In this document: piece after piece, positions 1 to 12,420 of the stretch
How the letters are laid out: each line of letters begins with the position of its first letter
Position numbering within the stretch: position 1 is the first letter of the stretch
IMG/VR virus record: IMGVR_UViG_2585427758_000001
Coordinates: 1-12,420 of that record
DNA length: 12,420 nucleotides
DNA from: a virus
Lineage: Duplodnaviria > Heunggongvirae > Uroviricota > Caudoviricetes
Direction: 5' to 3' (one strand)
Notes under the pieces: model-generated
Told to the model about the DNA's origin: nothing
What the model saw: only the letters and a program-made list of their open reading frames with translations
Database searches by the model: none
Translations under genes and position numbers: made by a program

Positions 1-1
1 G

Positions 2-565
2 ACCATCACCGGCGGCAGTGTTGCGCTGGAAGATGGTGTGTTTAAGGTTACCAAGCAGAGCAATAAAACCTGGTCCCTGATGCATCCGGTGGATGACGCA
101 GTCTCCCTGCTGACACGGGGTGGCAGACTGAGCTGTAAGTTTCGACTGTCAGGCGCACTGACCAACAACCAGTTCGGTCTGGGAATTTATCTGTATACCG
201 ATGTAGCGTTACCTGACGTCGTGGCGATGACCGGGACTGGTAACCCGTTCCTGATGTCGTTCTTCACCCAGACCACAGACGGCAAACTGAATCTGATGCA
301 TCACAGGAAAGCAGGAAACACAAAGTTGGGCGAGTTCGGGAATTACAGTAACGACTGGCAGACGCTGGAGCTGGTGTTCACCGCCGGCAGTGCCACGGTT
401 ACTCCGAAACTGAATGGAGTGGCTGGCCCGGCATTCCAGGTCATAAAAGACAGTCTGACACTGGGGCTGAATGCGCTGACGCTGACGGATATTACCAAAA
501 ATGCAGCGTATGGCGTTGAGATAGAAAGTCTGGTGCTGGAGATAAATGCACCAGCATCATCATAA
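2..565 (+). CDS. 3' portion of a gene starting upstream of the window; hypothetical, Thr/Gly/Asn/Ser-rich, possibly a carbohydrate-binding or beta-rich C-terminal domain of a late-region moron (NanS-p-like esterase C-terminus is only a guess)
   Basis: Reading frame is open from position 2 to stop at 563-565 (no stop upstream in frame, checked by hand). The GTG at 38 in the ORF track is probably internal. Product guess rests on composition and genomic position only. Confidence 0.55.
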   Translation, partial: TITGGSVALEDGVFKVTKQSNKTWSLMHPVDDAVSLLTRGGRLSCKFRLSGALTNNQFGLGIYLYTDVALPDVVAMTGTGNPFLMSFFTQTTDGKLNLMHHRKAGNTKLGEFGNYSNDWQTLELVFTAGSATVTPKLNGVAGPAFQVIKDSLTLGLNALTLTDITKNAAYGVEIESLVLEINAPASS

Positions 566-649
566 AAAGTGAGCCAGTCAAATGGAAGGTATCGTTAAAC
601 TCACCGGTAGTGTCAGTGGGTCGTCTGAGATGCCTGCATGAGTTATCAG

Positions 650-681
650 AGCCATCAGTACTTAACTGGTGGCTTTTTTTA
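650..681 (+). terminator. Rho-independent terminator-like hairpin plus T-tract upstream of the holin gene
   Basis: Stem AGCCATCAG (650-658) pairs with CTGGTGGCT (666-674) with one G-U pair, 7-nt loop, followed by TTTTTTT (675-681). Confidence 0.6.
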
Positions 682-715
682 TTGTTGTCAGCTTCCGGAT
701 AACGGGAGACGGGGT

Positions 716-931
716 ATGTACCAGATGGAAAAAATCACAACAGGTGTGTCATACACCACGTCAGCGGTGGGAACGGGCTACTGGTTCCTGCAGTTGCTGG
801 ACAGGGTTTCCCCGTCTCAGTGGGCGGCAATAGGCGTGCTGGGGAGTCTGCTGTTTGGGCTGCTGACATATCTGACTAACCTGTATTTCAAAATCAGAGA
901 GGACCGTCGTAAGGCTGCACGGGGAGAGTAA
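716..931 (+). CDS. S: Class II holin (pinholin, phage 21 S-like), 71 aa, with dual-start motif
   Basis: Starts MYQMEK (Met1/Met4 dual start typical of holin/antiholin pairs). Two hydrophobic segments ([20 protein letters not shown] and [23 protein letters not shown]) and a charged C-terminus [21 protein letters not shown] about 7 nt upstream of ATG 716. The ORF-track start at 638 lacks an RBS and adds a non-hydrophobic leader. Confidence 0.85.
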
Positions 932-935
932 TTCA

Positions 936-1280
936 ATGACTCAAAACTATGAACTGATTGTGAAAGGGATCCGCAATTTTGAGAATAAAGTTACGGTAAC
1001 TTTAGCGTTACGGGACAAAAAACGCTTTGACGGTGAAATTTTTGACCTGGACATCTCGCTGGACCGTGTTGAAGGTGCCGCGCTGGAGTTTTATGAGGCA
1101 GCAGCCAGAAGGAGCATCAGACAGGTCTTCCTGGATGTTGCTGCCGGGTTATGTGAAGGGGATGAGCAGTCGCCGGAAAAGCGCCCCGTAATTTTAGAGG
1201 CGCAGGATGTGTTGATAACCTACAGAGGAAAACTACCGGGAATAATTACGGGTTCTCTGAAGAGTCCGCCGAAATGGTAA
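936..1280 (+). CDS. Hypothetical 114-aa protein, possibly DUF1327/YdfR-like (a family found between holin and endolysin in E. coli lambdoid prophages)
   Basis: Intact ORF with SD-like GGGGAGAG upstream, sitting 4 nt after the holin stop. Family assignment is from memory of the Qin prophage essQ-ydfR-rrrQ order, not a computed match. Region is AT-richer than the head genes. Confidence 0.65.
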   Translation: MTQNYELIVKGIRNFENKVTVTLALRDKKRFDGEIFDLDISLDRVEGAALEFYEAAARRSIRQVFLDVAAGLCEGDEQSPEKRPVILEAQDVLITYRGKLPGIITGSLKSPPKW

Positions 1281-1518
1281 TTTTACCAGCATATTTTTCA
1301 TCCAGTAATACAGCAAGCCGCCTGAAAGAGTCTTGTTGTTCCTGAGACCATTTGGGATTGCATGATTCAAACTGGATTGATGCCAGCGTTGATTGCATCT
1401 GTTCCCTTGGAATTGAGAATGCCAGATATGAGAAGGCGACGGTAAGGGTATTCACGTCTTCCCGAAGCCTGGAAATGCTGTCGAGCAACTCCTGTAGAGA
1501 AATGGTGTTATTGTCCAT
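1246..1518 (-). CDS. Hypothetical 90-aa acidic protein on the opposite strand, convergent with the 936..1280 gene
   Basis: ATG at minus-strand 1518 is preceded by GAGGA with a 6-nt spacer (good SD). Balanced, non-repetitive composition. 3' end overlaps the 936..1280 ORF by 35 nt. The competing + ORF 1352..1558 has no RBS and is Cys/Ser-rich. Confidence 0.45.
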   Translation of the reverse strand: MDNNTISLQELLDSISRLREDVNTLTVAFSYLAFSIPREQMQSTLASIQFESCNPKWSQEQQDSFRRLAVLLDEKYAGKITISADSSENP

Positions 1519-1573
1519 AAATAATCCTCATGATTGTATTGACCTGTTAGCAGCCTGAGGCAACAGGCTGGAA

Positions 1574-1623
1574 CTGATAAACATATCCAGGGCTCAGAAA
1601 CCGATAAATCCTGATAAATATCC
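1574..1623 (+). repeat. Direct repeats CTGATAAA(C)ATATCC immediately upstream of the endolysin start codon
   Basis: CTGATAAACATATCC at 1574-1588 and CTGATAAATATCC at 1611-1623, with a third GATAAAT at 1603-1609. Seen directly in sequence. Confidence 0.5.
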
Positions 1624-2157
1624 ATGAACGCAAAAATCAGATACGGCCTGTCGGCTGCCGTTCTGGCGCTGATTGCCGCTGGTGCGCCTGCGCCTGACAT
1701 TCTCGACCAGTTTCTGGATGAAAAGGAAGGTAACCACACCACGGCATACCGTGATGGCGCGGGTATCTGGACCATCTGCCGCGGTGCCATCCTGGTGGAT
1801 GGCAAACCTGTCGTTCCGGGCATGAAGTTGTCGAAGGAAAAATGCGACCGGGTTAACGCCATTGAGCGTGATAAGGCGCTGGCATGGGTGGAGAAAAACA
1901 TCAGAGTGCCATTGAGTGAACCCCAGAAAGCGGGGATCGCGTCATTCTGTCCGTACAACATTGGCCCCGGTAAGTGTTTTCCGTCGACGTTTTATAAACG
2001 AATTAATGCAGGTGATCGCAGGGGAGCGTGTGAGGCGATTCGCTGGTGGATTAAGGACGGTGGCAGAGACTGCCGTATTCGCTCAAATAACTGTTACGGT
2101 CAGGTATCCCGTCGTGACCAGGAGAGCGCGCTGGCGTGCTGGGGAATCGACAGATAA
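1624..2157 (+). CDS. R: SAR endolysin, T4-lysozyme family (GH24) phage lysozyme, 177 aa
   Basis: N-terminal weakly hydrophobic Gly/Ala-rich segment YGLSAAVLALIAAGAPA (SAR-like). Catalytic motif E-x8-D-x5-T in EKEGNHTTAYRDGAGIWT. Follows the pinholin as expected for pinholin/SAR-endolysin pairs. Confidence 0.9.
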   Translation: MNAKIRYGLSAAVLALIAAGAPAPDILDQFLDEKEGNHTTAYRDGAGIWTICRGAILVDGKPVVPGMKLSKEKCDRVNAIERDKALAWVEKNIRVPLSEPQKAGIASFCPYNIGPGKCFPSTFYKRINAGDRRGACEAIRWWIKDGGRDCRIRSNNCYGQVSRRDQESALACWGIDR

Positions 2158-2247
2158 GCAGAATATTTTGCTAATCAATGACGTTGGCCAAGGCGGACGG
2201 ATAACACGAAATCCTGCGAACTGGCAAAATGTAAGTGAATAAAAGTA

Positions 2248-2286
2248 AAAACCCCGTTTGTTGGCAGCAAGCGGGGTTTTGTTTTT
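2248..2286 (+). terminator. Strong rho-independent terminator downstream of the endolysin
   Basis: A-tract, then stem CCCCGTTTGT (2252-2261) pairing with GCAAGCGGGG (2267-2276) including two G-U pairs, 5-nt loop, then TTTTGTTTTT (2277-2286). Confidence 0.7.
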
Positions 2287-2351
2287 ATGGCAGTAAGCTA
2301 TGGGAGGCTGCCTTGATTGATTTTAGCAAACTGATTAGGGAGTTGCGACTC

Positions 2352-2447
2352 ATGATTAGTCAATTACCAAACTGGAAATTTTTGCTGGTCTGGAGCATCC
2401 CTTTTTTATGGGTAGTATCCCAGTTAATTGTGGCAATTAAGGGGTAG
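2352..2447 (+). CDS. Candidate small hydrophobic peptide, 31 aa (MISQLPNWKFLLVWSIPFLWVVSQLIVAIKG)
   Basis: ATG 2352 with GGGAG 9 nt upstream; single predicted TM helix; stop TAG lies 2 nt before the next ATG. Not in the ORF track (below its size cutoff). Could be a T-rich artefact. Confidence 0.3.
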   Translation: MISQLPNWKFLLVWSIPFLWVVSQLIVAIKG

Positions 2448-2449
2448 CT

Positions 2450-2581
2450 ATGTCAGACAAACTCATAACGCCGGCAAAGGTCCTGTGTGTGATTGTCGGT
2501 ATTTCATTTTCACTAATGCTGGTTGCTCTTTTTCTGTCCCTCGCCTGGGTGATGTTGTCTTCGTCGGGGCTGCTGGGGTGA
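2450..2581 (+). CDS. Candidate small membrane peptide, 43 aa (MSDKLITPAKVLCVIVGISFSLMLVALFLSLAWVMLSSSGLLG)
   Basis: ATG 2450 with SD AAGGGG and a 5-nt spacer; one strongly hydrophobic helix; stop TGA overlaps the GTG of the next small ORF (GTGA). Confidence 0.4.
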   Translation: MSDKLITPAKVLCVIVGISFSLMLVALFLSLAWVMLSSSGLLG

Positions 2582-2700
2582 CAGTGACTGATGACATCAG
2601 CAGAGCGCTGGCTTTTGCTATTAAGTGGGTGGCTGTTGGTATTGCTGTGTCTCCGATGCTGTATGGGCTGGCAAAACTGGTCATTGCGCTGAAATCGTGA
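2578..2700 (+). CDS. Candidate small membrane peptide, ~40 aa (VTVTDDISRALAFAIKWVAVGIAVSPMLYGLAKLVIALKS), paralogous to the next peptide
   Basis: GTG start overlapping the previous stop; hydrophobic helix. Shares the RA(L/M)AFAI(K/R)xVA motif with the 2712..2798 peptide, encoded with different synonymous codons (AGA/CGG Arg, GCG/GCA, GCT/GCC Ala). Confidence 0.4.
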   Translation: MTVTDDISRALAFAIKWVAVGIAVSPMLYGLAKLVIALKS

Positions 2701-2711
2701 ACTTTAAAAAG

Positions 2712-2798
2712 ATGAGTGCTGAACTTATTCGGGCAATGGCATTTGCCATTCGTATTGTGGCCATTGCTGTTCTGGTCTGGGCAATCCGTTGGTGGTGA
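2712..2798 (+). CDS. Candidate small membrane peptide, 28 aa ([28 protein letters not shown]), paralogous to the previous peptide
   Basis: ATG 2712; stop TGA 2796-2798 sits 1 nt before the Rz ATG at 2800. Sequence similarity to the 2578..2700 peptide is preserved at protein level despite synonymous differences. Confidence 0.4.
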
Positions 2799-2799
2799 T

Positions 2800-3267
2800 A
2801 TGAACCGTGTTCTGTGTGTGGTGATTATTGTCATGCTGGTGGCCTGTGGTGCGCTTAGTCTGGGGCTGAATCATTACCGTGATAACGCCATTACCTACAA
2901 AGCCCAGCGCGACAAAAATGTCAGAGAACTGAAGCTGGCGAACGCGGCAATTACTGACATGCAGATGCGTCAGCGTGATGTTGCTGCGCTCGATGCAAAA
3001 TACTCGAGGGAATTAGCCGATGCGAGAGCTGAAAATGAAACTCTTCGCGCTGACGTTGCCGCTGGTCGTAAGCGCCTGCGTATCAACGCCACCTGTCCAG
3101 GTCCCGTGCGTGAAGCCACCGGCACCGCCCGCGTGGATAATGCAACCGGCCCCCGACTGGCAGACACCGCTGAACGGGATTATTTCACCCTCAGAGAGCG
3201 GCTGATGACGATGCACAAGCAACTGGAAGGGGCGCAGGAATATATCCGCACTCAGTGCCTGAAATAA
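2800..3267 (+). CDS. Rz: Inner-membrane spanin Rz (i-spanin), 155 aa
   Basis: N-terminal TM anchor ([20 protein letters not shown]), then [17 protein letters not shown]...[16 protein letters not shown], closely matching lambda Rz as recalled. ATG 2800 preceded by GGTGGTGA. The ORF-track GTG at 2716 would add an unsupported leader. Confidence 0.9.
3020..3205 (+). CDS. Rz1: Outer-membrane lipoprotein spanin Rz1 (o-spanin), embedded in the +1 frame of Rz
   Basis: Signal peptide with lipobox LVVSAC, Pro-rich mature part [32 protein letters not shown] matching lambda Rz1 as recalled; wholly inside Rz in another frame. True start may be Met1 (3020) or Met6 (3035). Confidence 0.85.
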
Positions 3268-3484
3268 GTTTTGCTGATGCGCGGTATTGTCGCCGTATCC
3301 CCGCATTAACAGAGACCGCAGCCCGACCGGGAGACTCCTCTGCGCGAGTGTGCGGGGATAATCAAAAACGATACACACCGGGGTTTACCGCGTTAACGGA
3401 GCGCGGCGTTGTCCCCTCATAGTCGCCTGTCCGGTGCGATGGTGGAAGAAACCGGACTACATTGAAAATGATAACCATTATCAT

Positions 3485-3535
3485 TTTTGCGGGTCCTTTC
3501 CGGCGATCCGGGCCGTTACGGGGCGGCGACCTCGC
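3485..3535 (+). other. cos: cos site: cosQ-like region and cosN with the 12-nt cohesive-end sequence GGGCGGCGACCT (3521-3532)
   Basis: Exact lambda cohesive-end sequence at 3521-3532, preceded by GCGGGTCCTTTCCGGCGATCCG...GTTACG resembling the lambda right end and followed by CGCGGGTTTTCGCTATTTATGAAAATTTTCCGG as at the lambda left end (from memory). Confidence 0.85.
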
Positions 3536-3567
3536 GGGTTTTCGCTATTTATGAAAATTTTCCGGGG

Positions 3568-3685
3568 AAAATCATGTCGGTACTTCTCGAACATAACTAT
3601 TTGTTTTTTCTAATATCGAATCCGTAAAAGGTCCGACATGAAAACGCCTAAAAAAGTCATTTTCGGGCACTTTCATGTCGGCCCC
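3568..3685 (+). repeat. cosB: cosB-like terminase small-subunit binding region: three copies of TCATGTCGG (direct 3572-3580, inverted 3633-3641, direct 3673-3681) flanking an AT-rich segment
   Basis: Repeats seen directly. Arrangement direct-inverted-direct at about +52, +113 and +153 from the cohesive-end start mirrors lambda R3-I1-R2-R1, but the repeat sequence differs from the lambda R consensus (CGTTTCC...). AT-rich spacer 3590-3625 is a plausible IHF/bend site (weak match only). Confidence 0.6.
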
Positions 3686-3708
3686 TGTATTTATTGTGAG
3701 ACTGTTTC

Positions 3709-4228
3709 ATGAAGGTTAATAAAAAGAAACTTGCCGAAATTTTCAACGTGGATCCGCGAACGATTGAACGCTGGCAGTCTCAGGGACTCCCTTGTGTCTC
3801 CGGAGGTGGTAAGGGCGTTGAATCTGTATTTGATACCGCCATGGCAATTCAGTGGTATGCGCAGAGGGAAGCTGATATCGAAAATGAAAAACTCCGTAAA
3901 GAGGTTGAGGATTACAGGGCTGCCAGTGAGGCAGATCTCCAGCCTGGGACTATTGAGTACGAACGCCATCGACTTACGCGTGCGCAGGCCGACGCACAGG
4001 AGCTGAAGAATGCCAGAGACTCCGCAGAGGTGGTGGAAACCGCATTCTGTACTTTCGTGCTGTCACGGATCGCAGGTGAAATTGCCAGTATTCTTGACGG
4101 GATCCCTCTCTCGGTACAGCGGCGTTTTCCGGAACTGGAAAACCGACATGTTGATTTCCTGAAACGGGATATCATCAAAGCCATGAACAAAGCAGCCGCG
4201 CTGGATGAACTGATACCGGGGTTGCTGA

Positions 4229-4254
<26 letters not shown>
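3709..4254 (+). CDS. nu1: Terminase small subunit (Nu1-type), 181 aa; N-terminal DNA-binding domain non-lambda (phage 21-like by recollection), C-terminal part lambda-identical
   Basis: Same length and 26-nt overlap with A as lambda Nu1. From about residue 73 ([32 protein letters not shown]...) it matches lambda Nu1 as recalled; residues 1-70 ([29 protein letters not shown]...) are divergent. Confidence 0.9.
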
Positions 4255-7935
<3,681 letters not shown>

Positions 7936-7955
<20 letters not shown>

Positions 7956-9255
7956 TCTCCCGCATATTGCCAGCATGGCTTTTAATGAGCCGCTGATGCT
8001 TGAACCCGCCTATGCGCGGGTTTTCTTTTGTGCGCTTGCAGGCCAGCTTGGGATCAGCCGCCTGACGGATGCGGTGTCCGGCGACAGCCTGACTGCCCAG
8101 GAGGCACTCGCGACGCTGGCATTATTCGGTGATGATGACGGACCACGACAGGCCCGCAGTTATCAGGTCATGAACGGCATCGCCGTGCTGCCGGTGTCCG
8201 GCACGCTGGTCAGCCGGACGCGGGCGCTGCAGCCGTACTCGGGGATGACCGGTTACAACGGCATTATCGCCCGTCTGCAACAGGCTGCCAGCGACCCGAT
8301 GGTGGACGGCATTCTGCTCGATATGGACACGCCAGGCGGAATGGTGGCGGGGGCATTTGACTGCGCTGACATCATTGCCCGTGTGCGTGACATAAAACCG
8401 GTATGGGCGCTGGCCAACGACATGAACTGTAGTGCAGGTCAGCTGCTTGCCAGTGCCGCCTCCCGGCGTCTGGTCACGCAGACCGCCCGGACAGGCTCCA
8501 TCGGCGTCATGATGGCTCACAGTAATTACGGTGCTGCCCTGGAGAAACAGGGTGTGGAAATCACGCTGATTTACAGCGGCAGCCATAAGGTGGATGGCAA
8601 TCCCTACAGCCATCTTCCGGATGACGTCCGGGAGACACTGCAGTCCCGGATGGACGCAACCCGCCAGATGTTTGCGCAGAAGGTGTCGGCATATACCGGC
8701 CTGTCTGTGCAGGCTGTGCTGGATACCGAGGCTGCAGTGTACAGCGGTCAGGAGGCCATTGATGCCGGACTGGCTGATGAACTTGTTAACAGCACCGATG
8801 CGATCACCGTCATGCGTGATGCACTGGATGCGCGTAAATCCCGTCTCTCAGGAGGGCGAATGACCAAAGAGACTCAATCAACAACTGTTTCAGCCACTGC
8901 TTCGCAGGCTGACGTTACTGACGTGGTGCCAGCGACGGAGGGCGAAAACGCCAGCGCGGCGCAGCCGGACGTGAACGCGCAGATCACCGCAGCGGTTGCG
9001 GCAGAAAACAGCCGCATTATGGGGATCCTCAACTGTGAGGAGGCTCACGGACGCGAAGAACAGGCCCGCGTGCTGGCAGAACCCCCCGGTATGACCGTGG
9101 AAACGGCCCGCCGCATTCTGGCAGCTGCACCACAGAGTGCACAGGCGCGCAGTGACACTGCGCTGGATCGTCTGATGCAGGGGGCACCGGCACCGCTGGC
9201 TGCAGGTAACCCGGCATCTGATGCCGTTAACGATTTGCTGAACACACCAGTGTAA
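7936..9255 (+). CDS. C: Head maturation protease / scaffold gpC (S49-family serine protease), 439 aa, GTG start
   Basis: Begins VTAELRNLPHIASMAFNEPLMLEP... as lambda C; GTG 7936 preceded by GAGGAGGAGAAG; overlaps the B 3' end. The ORF-track ATG at 7801 is an in-frame upstream extension inside B and is not the start. Confidence 0.9.
8860..9255 (+). CDS. nu3: Scaffolding protein Nu3, translated from an in-frame internal start within C
   Basis: Internal ATG 8860 (MTKETQSTTVSA...) preceded by strong SD AGGAGGG; co-terminal with C. An alternative in-frame ATG at 8650 (MDATRQMF...) cannot be excluded from sequence alone. Confidence 0.5.
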   Translation: MTKETQSTTVSATASQADVTDVVPATEGENASAAQPDVNAQITAAVAAENSRIMGILNCEEAHGREEQARVLAEPPGMTVETARRILAAAPQSAQARSDTALDRLMQGAPAPLAAGNPASDAVNDLLNTPV

Positions 9256-9264
9256 GGGATGTTT

Positions 9265-9597
9265 ATGACGAGCAAAGAAACCTTTACCCATTACCAGCCG
9301 CTGGGCAACAGTGACCCGGCACATACGGCAACCGCGCCCGGCGGATTGAGTGCGAAAGCGCCTGCAATGACCCCGCTGATGCTGGATACCTCCACCCGTA
9401 AGCTGGTTGCGTGGGATGGCACCACCGACGGTGCTGCCGTTGGCATTCTGGCGGTTGATGCTGACCAGACCAGCACCACGCTGACGTTCTACAAGTCCGG
9501 CACGTTCCGTTATGAGGATGTGCTCTGGCCGGAGGCTGCCAGCGACGAGACGAAAAAACGGACCGCGTTTGCCGGAACGGCAATCAGCATCGTTTAA
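9265..9597 (+). CDS. D: Head decoration protein gpD, 110 aa
   Basis: [43 protein letters not shown]... matches lambda D as recalled; ATG 9259 two codons upstream is less likely. Confidence 0.95.
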
Positions 9598-9614
9598 CTT
9601 TACCCTTCATCACT

Positions 9615-9640
9615 AAAGGCCGCCTGTGCGGCTTTTTTTA
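9615..9640 (+). terminator. Hairpin plus U-tract between D and E (terminator or attenuator-like)
   Basis: GGCCGC (9618-9623), loop CTGT, GCGGCT (9628-9633), then TTTTTTT; sits in the D-E intergenic spacer. Confidence 0.4.
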
Positions 9641-9652
9641 CGGGATTTTTTT

Positions 9653-10678
9653 ATGTCGATGTACACAACCGCCCAGCTGCTGGCGGCAAATGAGCAGAAA
9701 TTTAAGTTTGATCCGCTGTTTCTGCGTCTCTTTTTCCGTGAGAGCTATCCCTTCACCACGGAGAAAGTCTATCTCTCACAAATTCCGGGACTGGTAAACA
9801 TGGCGCTGTACGTTTCGCCGATTGTTTCCGGTGAGGTTATCCGTTCCCGTGGCGGCTCCACCTCTGAATTTACGCCGGGATATGTCAAGCCGAAGCATGA
9901 GGTGAATCCGCAGATGACCCTGCGTCGCCTGCCGGATGAAGATCCGCAGAATCTGGCGGACCCGGCTTACCGCCGCCGTCGCATCATCATGCAGAACATG
10001 CGTGACGAAGAGCTGGCCATTGCTCAGGTCGAAGAGATGCAGGCAGTTTCTGCCGTGCTTAAGGGCAAATACACCATGACCGGTGAAGCCTTTGATCCGG
10101 TTGAGGTGGATATGGGCCGCAGTGCGGCGAACAACATCACACAGTCCGGCGGCACGGAGTGGAGCAAGCGTGACAAGTCCACGTATGACCCGACCGACGA
10201 TATCGAAGCCTACGCGCTGAACGCCAGCGGCGTGGTGAATATCATTGTGTTTGACCCGAAAGGCTGGGCGCTGTTCCGTTCCTTCAAAGCCGTCAGGGAG
10301 AAGCTGGATACCCGTCGCGGCTCTCATTCCGAACTGGAGACAGCGGTAAAAGACCTGGGCAAAGCGGTGTCTTATAAGGGAATGTATGGCGATGTGGCCA
10401 TCGTCGTGTATTCCGGACAGTACGTGGAAAACGGCGTCAAAAAGAACTTCCTGCCGGACAACACGATGGTGCTGGGTAACACTCATGCACGCGGTCTGCG
10501 CACCTATGGCTGCATTCAGGATGCGGATGCACAGCGCGAAGGCATTAACGCCTCTGCCCGTTACCCGAAAAACTGGGTGACCACCGGCGATCCGGCGCGT
10601 GAGTTCACCATGATTCAGTCAGCACCGCTGATGCTGCTGGCTGACCCTGATGAGTTCGTTTCCGTACAACTGGCGTAA
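9653..10678 (+). CDS. E: Major capsid protein gpE, 341 aa
   Basis: MSMYTTAQLLAANEQKFKFDPLFLRLFFRESYPFTTEKVYLSQIPGLVNMALYVSPIVSGEVIRSRGG... matches lambda E as recalled; the ORF-track start at 9626 lies inside the upstream hairpin. Confidence 0.95.
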   Translation: MSMYTTAQLLAANEQKFKFDPLFLRLFFRESYPFTTEKVYLSQIPGLVNMALYVSPIVSGEVIRSRGGSTSEFTPGYVKPKHEVNPQMTLRRLPDEDPQNLADPAYRRRRIIMQNMRDEELAIAQVEEMQAVSAVLKGKYTMTGEAFDPVEVDMGRSAANNITQSGGTEWSKRDKSTYDPTDDIEAYALNASGVVNIIVFDPKGWALFRSFKAVREKLDTRRGSHSELETAVKDLGKAVSYKGMYGDVAIVVYSGQYVENGVKKNFLPDNTMVLGNTHARGLRTYGCIQDADAQREGINASARYPKNWVTTGDPAREFTMIQSAPLMLLADPDEFVSVQLA

Positions 10679-10680
10679 TC

Positions 10681-10706
10681 GTGGCCCTTCGGGGCCATTT
10701 TCTCTC
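10681..10706 (+). terminator. Stable UUCG-tetraloop hairpin followed by a U/C-rich tract between E and FI
   Basis: GTGGCCC (10681-10687), loop TTCG, GGGCCAT (10692-10698), then TTTCTCTCT; the pyrimidine tract is not a clean U-run, so terminator function is uncertain. Confidence 0.35.
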
Positions 10707-10719
10707 TGTGGAGGAGTTC

Positions 10720-11106
10720 ATGACGAAAGATGAACTGATTGCCCGTCTTCAGGAGCTGGGTGAGCAACTGAACCGTGATGTCAGCCTGACGGGAACGAAA
10801 GAAGAACTGGCGCTCCGTGTGGCAGAGCTGGAAGAGGAGCTTGATGACACTGCCGATCAGGATACCCCTATCAGCCCGGAAAATGCGCTGACCGGACATG
10901 AAAATGAGGTTGTATCAGCGCAGCCGGATACCGTGACTGATACGGCTGATCTGGTCACGGTTGTGGCACTGGTGACGCTGCATACTGATGCACTTCACGC
11001 CACGCGGGATGACACTGTGGCATTTGTGCTGCCGGGAACGGCGTTCCGTGTCTCTGCCGGTGTGGCAGCCGAAATGACAGAACGCGGCCTGGCCAGAATG
11101 CAATAA
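10720..11106 (+). CDS. FI: DNA packaging protein gpFI
   Basis: MTKDELIARLQELGEQLNRDVSLTGTKEELALRVAELEEELDD...GTAFRVSAGVAAEMTERGLARMQ matches lambda FI as recalled; SD GGAGGAG before ATG 10720. Confidence 0.9.
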   Translation: MTKDELIARLQELGEQLNRDVSLTGTKEELALRVAELEEELDDTADQDTPISPENALTGHENEVVSAQPDTVTDTADLVTVVALVTLHTDALHATRDDTVAFVLPGTAFRVSAGVAAEMTERGLARMQ

Positions 11107-11117
11107 CGGGAGGCGCT

Positions 11118-11471
11118 GTGGCTGATTTCGATAACCTGTTCGATGCTGCCATTGCCCGCGCCGATGAAACGATACGCGGGTACATGGGAACGTCAGCCAC
11201 CATGACATCCGGTGAGCAGTCCGGCGCAGTAATACGTGGTGTTTTTGATGACCCTGAAAATATCAGCTATGCCGGACAGGGCGTGCGCGTTGAAGGCTCC
11301 AGCCCGTCCCTGTTTGTCCGGACTGATGATGTGCGGCAACTGCGGCGTGGAGACACGCTGACCATCGGTGAGGAAAACTTCTGGATAGACCGGGTTTCGC
11401 CGGATGATGGTGGAAGCTGTCATCTCTGGCTCAACCGTGGGCAACCACCCGCTGTTAACCGGCGACGATAA
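11118..11471 (+). CDS. FII: Head-tail connector protein gpFII, 117 aa, GTG start
   Basis: MADFDNLFDAAIARADETIRGYMGTSATMTSGEQSGAVIRGVFDDPENISYAGQGVRVEG... matches lambda FII as recalled; SD GGGAGG upstream. Confidence 0.9.
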   Translation: MADFDNLFDAAIARADETIRGYMGTSATMTSGEQSGAVIRGVFDDPENISYAGQGVRVEGSSPSLFVRTDDVRQLRRGDTLTIGEENFWIDRVSPDDGGSCHLWLNRGQPPAVNRRR

Positions 11472-11486
11472 ACGCAGGGTGAAATT

Positions 11487-12062
11487 ATGGCGATAAAAGG
11501 GCTTGATCAGGCGATTGATAATCTGAGCCGGGTTCGTAAAAACGCCATTCCGGCGGCTTCAGCAATGACGATTAACCGCGTGGCCACAACGGCGATTAAT
11601 CAGTCTTCGTCACAGGTTGCCCGGGAAACCAGGGTGAGACGGAAACTGGTAAAGGAACGGTCCAGACTGAAACGGGCGACGGTCAGAAATCCGAATGCCA
11701 GAATTATCGTTAACCGCGGTGATCTCCCTGTGATTAAGCTGGGGATCAGAATGCTGGGACGTCGTCCGAACAGCATACTCAAAGCCGGTCAGCATCGTTA
11801 TCAGCGGGCATTTATCCAGCGATTAAATAATGGGCGCTGGCATGTTATGCAACGTCTTCCCCAGGCCAGATATGAGGAGGGCAATGACGACAAGGGAAGG
11901 AAAAAGCGTAATCGCCTTCCCATTCAGGTGGTGAAAATCCCGATGGCGGCCCCACTGAAACAGGCATTTGATGAGAATGTTGACCGTATCCGGCGTGAAC
12001 GCCTGCCTAAAGAACTGGCATACGCGCTGAAACAACAACTGAGGATTGCAATAAAACGATGA
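11487..12062 (+). CDS. Z: Tail assembly / tail completion protein gpZ, 191 aa
   Basis: MAIKGLDQAIDNLSRVRKNAIPAASAMTINRVA...; position after FII and ATGA overlap with U as in lambda. Confidence 0.9.
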   Translation: MAIKGLDQAIDNLSRVRKNAIPAASAMTINRVATTAINQSSSQVARETRVRRKLVKERSRLKRATVRNPNARIIVNRGDLPVIKLGIRMLGRRPNSILKAGQHRYQRAFIQRLNNGRWHVMQRLPQARYEEGNDDKGRKKRNRLPIQVVKIPMAAPLKQAFDENVDRIRRERLPKELAYALKQQLRIAIKR

Positions 12063-12420
12063 AACACACTGACATTCGTGCCGCAGTGCTGGATGCACTC
12101 GAGCAGCATGAACACGGGGCGACGCTGTTTGATGGTCGCCCCGTTGTTTTTGACGAAGAGGATTTTCCTGCGATCGCGGTTTATCTGACGGATGCAGAGT
12201 ATACCGGTGAAGAGCTGGATGCAGATACCTGGCGGGCCACGCTGCATATTGAGGTGTTTTTACCGGCACAGGTACCGGATTCAGAGCTTGATCAGTGGAT
12301 GGAAAGCCGGATTTACCCGGCGATGACCGCGATCCCGGCACTGGCAGGACTGATTACCACGATGGTTACGCAGGGCTATGAGTATCGTCGTGATGACGAT
12401 ATGGCGTTATGGAGTTCTGC
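12059..12420 (+). CDS. U: Tail terminator protein gpU, 5' portion (continues beyond window end)
   Basis: MKHTDIRAAVLDALEQHEHGATLFDGRPVVFDEEDFPAIAVYLTDAEYTGEELDADTWRATLHIEVFLPAQ... matches lambda U as recalled; no stop before the window end. Confidence 0.9.
   Translation, partial: MKHTDIRAAVLDALEQHEHGATLFDGRPVVFDEEDFPAIAVYLTDAEYTGEELDADTWRATLHIEVFLPAQVPDSELDQWMESRIYPAMTAIPALAGLITTMVTQGYEYRRDDDMALWSS

Follow-up and report, generated by a model that had tools for sequence, protein, structure and literature searches.

What separates the pinholin gene S from the lysozyme gene R in the late region of an E. coli lambdoid prophage, and how does a gene that runs against the late operon come to be there? 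The prophage is IMG/VR record IMGVR_UViG_2585427758_000001, of which positions 1 to 12,420 were analyzed (12,420 nucleotides, hereafter the window). Between the end of the holin gene at 931 and the start of the lysozyme gene at 1624 lie 692 bp, which encode a 114-residue YdfR-family protein on the late, or plus, strand (ydfR, 936..1280, ATG start, long-tail form) and a 90-residue protein on the minus strand (orf90, 1246..1518, ATG start). The two genes converge and overlap at their 3' ends by 35 nt (1246..1280). Our analysis indicates that the spacer probably carries a recurrent lambdoid convergent two-gene moron, in which ydfR faces orf90, an antisense cargo gene that appears to have its own means of expression.

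An initial annotation, made from the letters alone, had described a spacing of about 690 bp, a 114-residue and a convergent 90-residue open reading frame (ORF) with a 35-nt overlap, and a good Shine-Dalgarno (SD) sequence on the minus strand. All of these agree with the computed coordinates, the SD being GAGGA at 1529..1525 on the minus strand, 6 nt ahead of the ATG. Its by-eye impression that the region is AT-rich is upheld as well. The GC content is 47.8% in ydfR, 45.1% in orf90, 44.3% in the variable segment 1276-1575 and 41.0% upstream of orf90, compared with 53.2% in the holin gene, 55.1% in R and 54.5% in the whole window. The insert, at 44-48%, is thus set apart from the flanking lysis genes, at 52-55%, as is typical of the base composition of a moron. 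The premise that S and R are adjacent in phage 21-type cassettes does not hold in general. The order S-ydfR-R is common and is found in the Qin prophage of E. coli K-12, and ydfR is therefore not peculiar to the window.

The assignment of the plus-strand ORF to DUF1327, which the initial annotation had offered as a possibility, is confirmed by a Pfam hidden Markov model (HMM) search. PF07041 matches residues 1-111 with an E-value of 7.3e-43 (145.2 bits, cutoff 25). The protein also matches PHROG 406, and its RefSeq product name is 'YdfR family protein'. YdfR proteins have a common N-domain of ~75 residues and divergent tails: the N-terminal ~74 residues of the window protein are 81% identical to those of K-12 YdfR (P76160), while the tail (residues ~76-114) differs. 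K-12 YdfR is reported to bind the N-terminal (catalytic) half of RNase E via residues 1-72, to co-purify with RNA, and to cause no growth defect or toxicity when overproduced (PMC13232886). These are the only functional data that we found, and they refer to the K-12 protein, which has another tail. Across the E. coli P21-type lysis cassette ydfR is near-constant and the antisense cargo is exchangeable. The signal of purifying selection is much weaker in ydfR than in orf90, with a pairwise ratio of nonsynonymous to synonymous substitution rates (dN/dS) of ~0.60 vs 0.27 in the same 37 alleles (936-1245). The variable sites of ydfR cluster in the first ~120 nt, and mosaic recombination may inflate the value of ~0.60.

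The minus-strand gene orf90 is real and subject to purifying selection. It is called as a coding sequence by the Prokaryotic Genome Annotation Pipeline (PGAP) in RefSeq genomes (WP_000369850.1) and matches PHROG 2411 over its full length (E 1e-58). Word-seeded and exhaustive profile searches, with a second iteration, yielded 62, 20 and 125 homolog clusters. Homologs at 58-99% identity are all ~90 residues long, and distant relatives at 27-45% identity have 81-106 residues. The family shares the motif ELL..I..L+..vN.L.vAFSYLAFs....ti.sL.fEs.N......F..LA.eLe, with Y31, L32 and E51 invariant. The gene is intact in 36 of 37 unique DNA alleles, the remaining one having an internal stop, and its dN/dS in its own frame across these alleles is 0.27. 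The SD, (A/G)AGGA(T), and the ATG are invariant across the homologs. The antiparallel shadow frame contains stops at varying positions and no conserved start. The stop-codon patterns, together with the distant homologs, therefore identify orf90 rather than the antiparallel frame as the real gene. That the minus-strand ORF is genuine, as had been presumed, is borne out by its conservation, the PGAP call and length-conserved homologs down to 27% identity.

The orf90 protein is acidic, with a calculated isoelectric point (pI) of 4.5, and soluble. It is predicted to form three helices (residues 8-35, 38-52 and 59-76) followed by a disordered C-terminus (AlphaFold2 model, mean confidence score pLDDT 82, 44-sequence alignment). 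No informative match to a fold or to Pfam, NCBIfam, PADLOC or PDB entries was found. The PDB sequence search returned YibL alone, at E 0.27, and this candidate was rejected. A literature search with the orf90 accessions and the name 'ybl58' gave nothing relevant. Of 5426 complete E. coli genomes, 1123 (21%) carry the gene, among them CFT073 (C_RS06730), BL21 (in the Rac remnant) and ST131. The sequences fall into two allele groups, at 99% or higher and at 80-90% DNA identity, both of which keep the 90-residue ORF. orf90 seems enriched in resident or defective prophages. The surrounding S/ydfR/R DNA is matched by 370 phage records vs 3 for orf90.

In the ydfR-R slot, orf90 belongs to a cassette of ~300 bp that is swapped between prophages by recombination. 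Homology between collinear prophages stops at ~1273-1276 and restarts at ~1563-1580 (BLAST against L002-L005 and L091). From these breakpoints and the leader alignment, the replaceable cassette, consisting of orf90, its SD and its 5' untranslated region (UTR), was placed at 1276..1575, the stretch over which prophages that are otherwise collinear diverge. K-12 Qin has nothing in this slot, and prophage L002 almost nothing. Elsewhere it holds four other minus-strand genes of 79-104 residues, which belong to PHROGs 2572, 21218, 18136 and 1853 and occur in 314, 103, 58 and 90 genomes, respectively. The PHROG 1853 gene is orf6 of Stx2 phage 86. The products of these four genes have calculated pI values of 4.6-6.2, all below 7. 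Homology among the five slot occupants was considered and rejected (hhalign probabilities below 1%). The initial annotation had thought of a horizontally acquired moron, and this holds for the antisense gene, which lies in an exchanged cassette with clear junctions in a slot that other prophages leave empty or fill otherwise. In other phages the pair class also occupies the M/L and I/J junctions.

The flank shared by the slot occupants offers an explanation for how such a gene could be expressed. All five cargo types follow one minus-strand leader, ...TATCAGGATTTATCGG...CCCTGGATATGTT-N6-TTCAGCCCGYCAGYGGT(N)GGRCACTGGCG, after which each has an individual SD and ATG. The antisense flank beside R is thus a conserved leader common to unrelated cargo genes. 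It also precedes orf90 relatives in Citrobacter, with the pair upstream of a lambda-type holin gene, in metagenomic contig L093, and in Atlantibacter, between tail genes M and L. These relatives in Citrobacter and Atlantibacter have a canonical hairpin 1 and also keep the convergent overlap at the cargo 3' end. The cargo-less L002 has a decayed copy of the leader, and K-12 Qin lacks it. A CCCTGG(A/T)TA(T/A)GNT element, which includes the -10-like TA(T/A)GNT, precedes cargoes in other contexts too.

The canonical leader consists of hairpin 1 (TCAGCCCGYCAGYGGT..GGRCRCTGGYG), hairpin 2 (GAGGG-AUGGCUGAUUA-CCUCU), an SD and an ATG located 46-51 nt past hairpin 1. Among the 81 unique leaders from the matches listed, pair 7 of hairpin 1 is U-A in 64, C-G in 9, U.G in 6 and C.A in 2 (Fisher p 9e-7, not phylogeny-corrected). 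Pair 3 is U.G in 60 of the 81, where the late strand would have a C.A mismatch. RNAalifold gives hairpin 1 a stem of 8 bp on the cargo strand vs 5 bp on the late strand. The U.G pairing, the strand-specific stem and the near-constant spacing to the cargo ATG point to the structure belonging to the cargo mRNA. Hairpin 2 is conserved too, and occurs in the variants GGGGG/CCUCC and GCGAG/CUCGC.

Further features of the leader were noted. The 3' arm and loop of hairpin 2 (GAUGGCUGAUUACCUCU; arm GAUUACCUCU) resemble the 3' end of 16S rRNA (GAUCACCUCCU), and the 3' arm pairs with the SD-like GAGGG (leaders L120-L239 and L240/L241). An upstream ORF from the conserved ATGGCUG in hairpin 2 was rejected, as its length and stop position vary freely. 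In tail-gene contexts, A5 and a GCCGC/GCGGC hairpin stand ahead of the leader; read on the late strand, they form an intrinsic terminator and are so annotated in ES18. Rfam gave no leader match at gathering score in the window or in eight canonical-leader loci, one tRNA aside, and a literature search for the leader sequences gave nothing relevant. The shared structured leader appears undescribed so far.

The leader in the window is best described, from its sequence, as that of a derived member of this class. The conserved antisense platform adjoins the start of R (1571..1623, minus strand) and contains TATCAGGATTTATCGG...CCCTGGA and the -10-like TATGTT (1585..1580). The platform, TATGTT and the 5' part of hairpin 1 are kept. 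The canonical hairpin is replaced by another one of 7 bp (CAGCCUG-6 nt-CAGGCUG, 1570..1551, minus strand; centroid fold and alignment to canonical leaders), which lies in the putative 5' UTR of orf90, and the ATG follows 32 nt later. No match to the canonical leader was found in the window within 3 mismatches.

The same leader delineates a wider class of genes. A scan of IMG/VR with the hairpin 1 pattern gave at least 120 matching stretches, and the counts that follow are among the matches listed. In 119 stretches a cargo ORF was called, and the distance from hairpin 1 to its ATG is 42-57 nt, mostly 46-51 nt. These ORFs encode at least 71 unique cargo proteins in at least 25 BLAST families, mostly of 65-105 residues. 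Identified flanking genes are always on the opposite strand: gpL/gpM in at least 22 cassettes, R/YdfR in at least 14, and also gpK; in 53 cassettes flanks were identified on neither side. In 111 of the 119 cassettes a convergent late-strand ORF ends within 120 nt of the cargo stop, and of these ORFs 67 overlap the cargo and 93 have 180 residues or fewer. Recurring partner types are an MTLEQRVE-type coiled coil (39), a TLEGY-type protein (27) and DUF1327-like proteins (13). Pfam matches two of the ten cargo families scanned, as DUF1883 and an aspartyl-protease fold, and PADLOC none of the ten.

The canonical leader is found in phages HK022, ES18, HK633, mEp043, mEp213 and several Salmonella phages. 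In ES18 it lies ahead of gene 25, which converges on gene 24 between gpM and gpL. Both genes are annotated 'possible moron; function unknown', with putative terminators, and gp24 is itself a DUF1327 protein (Pfam, 30.7 bits). In HK022, between tail genes I and J, the leader precedes gp23, which is convergent with gp22 and overlaps it. These two are annotated 'moron gene product', and gp23 is also labeled srb; no functional literature on gp23/srb was found. The window shows the arrangement that characterizes the class, a small late-strand ORF converging on an antisense small ORF within the late operon. The ydfR-orf90 locus therefore belongs to a known yet uncharacterized class of convergent two-gene morons.

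Independent transcription of the antisense gene, which the initial annotation had envisaged, receives indirect support: the -10-like element, the covarying hairpin and the SD travel together through several genomic contexts, and the hairpin fits an antisense-sense RNA only. In the mechanism that we propose, orf90 would be transcribed leftwards from its own weak sigma-70-type promoter (~1580-1620, with TATGTT at 1585..1580), independently of Q and pR'. Its mRNA would start with the hairpin at 1570..1551, which may be protective or regulatory, and translation would begin from the strong SD. The transcript would probably terminate within ydfR, at a candidate intrinsic terminator (GCGCCUC-9 nt-GGGGCGC followed by UUUU, 1203..1177, minus strand) identified by folding. 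In this way orf90 could be produced in the lysogen while the late operon is silent. Once Q-modified polymerase passes through S-ydfR-R, head-on transcription and the fully complementary late mRNA should silence it; conversely, the orf90 transcript would be antisense to the 3' end of ydfR. By analogy with small prophage 'connector' proteins, the orf90 protein most likely binds and modulates a host or phage protein.

A broader proposal is put forward tentatively. It is possible that the leader, of ~150 nt, is an undescribed structured promoter/5' UTR platform from which lambdoid prophages of Enterobacterales express a large and rapidly exchanged repertoire of small proteins within their late operons. 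Its parts would be the -10-like element, the covarying hairpin 1, hairpin 2 with its 16S-like 3' arm, and the SD. It would serve at least 25-30 unrelated families at the S/R, M/L, I/J and other junctions, with orf90 as the commonest E. coli member, behind a derived leader.

Several results weigh against the two-gene moron with its own expression as set out here. The dN/dS failed as a strand discriminator, since the wobble-sharing antiparallel frame of orf90 scores 0.20. A scan for consensus sigma-70 promoters returned no site upstream of orf90, and no conserved -35 element was identified. The candidate terminator has only four U and was not called by the simple terminator scan, which requires at least five T. 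The window leader is shortened and lacks hairpin 2, and being remodeled in this way it may not share the properties of the canonical leader. Finally, orf90 occurs in only 3 of 50,697 deposited phage genomes, and for this reason it may matter mainly in resident or defective prophages.

Among the other explanations, the most serious gives orf90 and the other cargoes a role in anti-phage defence, superinfection exclusion or anti-defence, with the slot as a diversifying 'hotspot' for such proteins. The very high cargo diversity behind one platform would fit (25 families in the 119 listed cassettes and five in the ydfR-R slot), as would the small and mostly acidic proteins, their orientation against the late operon, as expected of lysogen-expressed genes, and the abundance of orf90 in resident prophages. 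We nevertheless consider a defence role unlikely. PADLOC-DB 2.0 (2023 library) matched neither YdfR nor orf90 nor any of ten other cargo families, and distant orf90 homologs are chromosomal in Serratia, at an apparently fixed position in the order pyrC-dinI-X-bssS-solA in six species genomes and in an Enterobacterales metagenome-assembled genome. A fixed dinI-X-bssS site is more like housekeeping or stress physiology. The Serratia-type homologs (L101-L107, ~3974-4276 in each) have 92-98 residues and ~35% identity, and sit after the dinI terminator with their own SD. A LexA box ahead of the Serratia homolog beside dinI was looked for and none was seen.

It has also to be asked whether orf90 is functionally coupled to YdfR, or to the YdfR C-terminal tail, in a toxin-antitoxin (TA)-like or mutually antisense-regulated pair in which orf90 made in the lysogen neutralizes or gates its late partner. 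Convergent late-strand ORFs in 111 of the 119 listed cassettes, 67 of them overlapping the cargo, are in line with this. The same is true of ES18, with a DUF1327 gene and an antisense gene at another genomic site, and of the Citrobacter and Atlantibacter phage relatives of orf90, which also face a late-strand ORF whose C-terminus resembles the YdfR tail (...ITGSL[KR]xPxx*). In addition, one prophage has lost the YdfR N-domain and retained orf90 together with a remnant of the YdfR tail. The proposed tail motif, suggestive by eye, was rejected as a link between orf90 partners: BLASTP found nothing, and the HMM gave E ~0.5 among 2112 ORFs, which is not significant. Partner C-termini are also not conserved across the cassettes among the matches listed.

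Against such a pair, orf90 is not bound to YdfR. Apart from the Serratia and related chromosomes, orf90-family genes stand alone in an E. coli island, following an AIDA autotransporter gene, and beside an HxlR regulator in Sodalis-like contigs, and conversely a long-tail YdfR occurs without orf90 in L002. The prophage that lost the YdfR N-domain and kept orf90 also speaks against an obligate pair. Given the standalone chromosomal homologs, the role of orf90 needs neither YdfR nor the lysis genes. As to a type II TA system, the genes converge and form no operon, and no TA families were found in Pfam, NCBIfam or PADLOC; nor were there matches to defence families. Overproduced K-12 YdfR, with its different tail, causes no growth defect (PMC13232886). 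The suggestions of a toxin-antitoxin, lysis-control or defence role made earlier find no support, as PADLOC, Pfam and NCBIfam give no functional hits and the class is also found among tail genes. An obligate ydfR-orf90 pair is unlikely, and a functional pairing of the TA-like or antisense kind appears quite unlikely overall.

Two observations concern the neighbors of the family in these other contexts. In the Sodalis-like contigs (L110, L111, L118, L119) the orf90-family gene lies ~540-575 bp downstream of a DUF1883 gene, with a 57-residue ORF between them, and cargo genes behind the phage leader include a DUF1883 family as well (L176, L181, L191). In a prophage whose orf90 is 72% identical (L094-L096), the late region contains, past the lysozyme gene, a toxin-antitoxin pair of ParD-like/ParE-like type (1589-2123 in L094) and then a Rha-family gene; the pair is another moron in a lysis region.

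The element beside R could instead serve the late mRNA, as a processing or stability hairpin or as a translation-initiation region, with the antisense ORFs as tolerated passengers. The element always lies upstream, in the late-strand sense, of the next late gene (R, gpL or holin), R has no obvious SD, and in a few leaders (L005, L091) the mismatches would be G.U pairs on the late strand. This is very unlikely in view of the spacing, which is near constant between hairpin 1 and the cargo ATG (46-51 nt) vs ~55 to ~115 nt to the next late gene, of the late-strand C.A mismatch in 60 of the 81 listed leaders, with the RNAalifold stem falling from 8 to 5 bp, and of L002 and K-12 Qin, where the element is decayed or absent and R is retained.

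It is most improbable that orf90 has lost its function in E. coli prophages and persists there as a decaying relic: the remodeled window leader without hairpin 2, truncated or frameshifted variants such as 'ybl58' and the pseudogene in L088, and the frequent location in defective prophages such as the BL21 Rac remnant would agree with decay, but 36 of 37 unique alleles are intact with a dN/dS of 0.27, both diverged allele groups retain the 90-residue ORF, and the SD and ATG are invariant.

Taken alone, the finding amounts to an annotated YdfR gene and an annotated hypothetical protein, that is, an ordinary moron. orf90 is present in about a fifth of complete E. coli genomes and as a standalone gene in Serratia and related genera, yet it is uncharacterized. 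The occurrence of DUF1327 as the late-strand partner at two genomic sites sharpens the question of the role of YdfR in phage development. A more interesting lead than the pair itself is the conserved structured leader common to many unrelated small prophage genes. It marks uncharacterized small prophage genes at any insertion site, so that one sequence/structure signature could list them. If the platform proposal is true, the cargoes would belong to one coherent functional class, such as proteins that are expressed in the lysogen and modulate host physiology or competing phages.

Positions 900-1650 of this late prophage region are 100% identical to E. coli strain CFSAN061761. The first gene in the window is the C-terminus of a NanS-type esterase. 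It is followed by the P21-type class II holin (pinholin S, 716..931, plus strand; PF04971, E 2.3e-32), for which PGAP annotates a 71-residue form in the identical genome region. On the right of the spacer lies the phage lysozyme R (1624..2157, plus strand; PF00959, E 1.3e-23; RefSeq 'rrrQ lysozyme'), whose N-terminal segment looks like a signal-anchor-release (SAR) sequence in a by-eye reading of MNAKIRYGLSAAVLALIAAGAPAP. R lacks a recognizable SD (window 1590-1626, ...GATAAATCCTGATAAATATCCATG); the Qin prophage of K-12 instead couples translation of R to that of ydfR through an overlap. Rz and Rz1 (PF03245 and PF06085) follow after a second spacer downstream of R. The order holin, lysozyme, Rz/Rz1 is that of a phage 21-type lysis cassette.

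The R-Rz spacer is a second accessory insert (2158-2799, GC 45.8%). It contains a strong terminator-like hairpin with a T-run (2248-2290) and three small, mostly hydrophobic plus-strand ORFs (2235-2447, 2450-2581 and 2428/2545-2700). These match PHROGs 6632, 4906 and 3246/1115, and PGAP annotates three tiny hypothetical proteins. A different setting of the cassette is seen in phage phiSTEC1575-Stx2k (L114, 1285-3303), where S (class II holin)-ydfR-orf90 is followed by two more holin genes and an M15 metallopeptidase. No SAR lysozyme follows orf90 there, and two holin systems surround the cassette.

Known systems resemble the locus to different degrees. Integron gene cassettes offer a functional analogy only, in that one conserved expression platform serves small, unrelated and exchangeable cargoes. 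Neither an integrase nor attC or attI sites are seen here, each site has one cargo rather than an array, and the breakpoints fit ordinary homologous recombination between conserved flanks. The moron concept of Hendrix, reportedly from Juhala et al. 2000, is closer. The bor gene of lambda is an extra gene within or next to the late operon that has expression signals of its own, runs in the opposite direction, is expressed in the prophage and has an atypical base composition; it stands alone downstream of Rz, encodes a lipoprotein and is known to confer serum resistance. The window shares with bor the extra gene against the late operon and a base composition unlike that of its neighbors, and differs from it in having two convergent genes, a soluble cargo and a leader common to many cargo families.

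K-12 Qin has a YdfR of the same Pfam family in the same place after a class II holin, whereas its ydfR directly overlaps rrrQ, has no antisense gene and encodes a different 29-residue tail. In HK022 genes 22/23, late-strand and antisense small ORFs converge and overlap among tail genes, with a canonical leader before the antisense gene; gp22 is not DUF1327 by Pfam, and the cargo family and insertion site differ from those of the window. ES18 genes 24/25 differ in their M/L tail site instead of S/R, in a cargo unrelated to orf90, in genes that abut without the 35-nt overlap, and in a canonical leader with both hairpins and a late-strand terminator, where the window leader is shortened. In both ES18 and the window, a late-strand DUF1327 gene faces a convergent antisense gene behind a leader of the same family, and the pair is inserted between late genes that are adjacent in other lambdoid phages.

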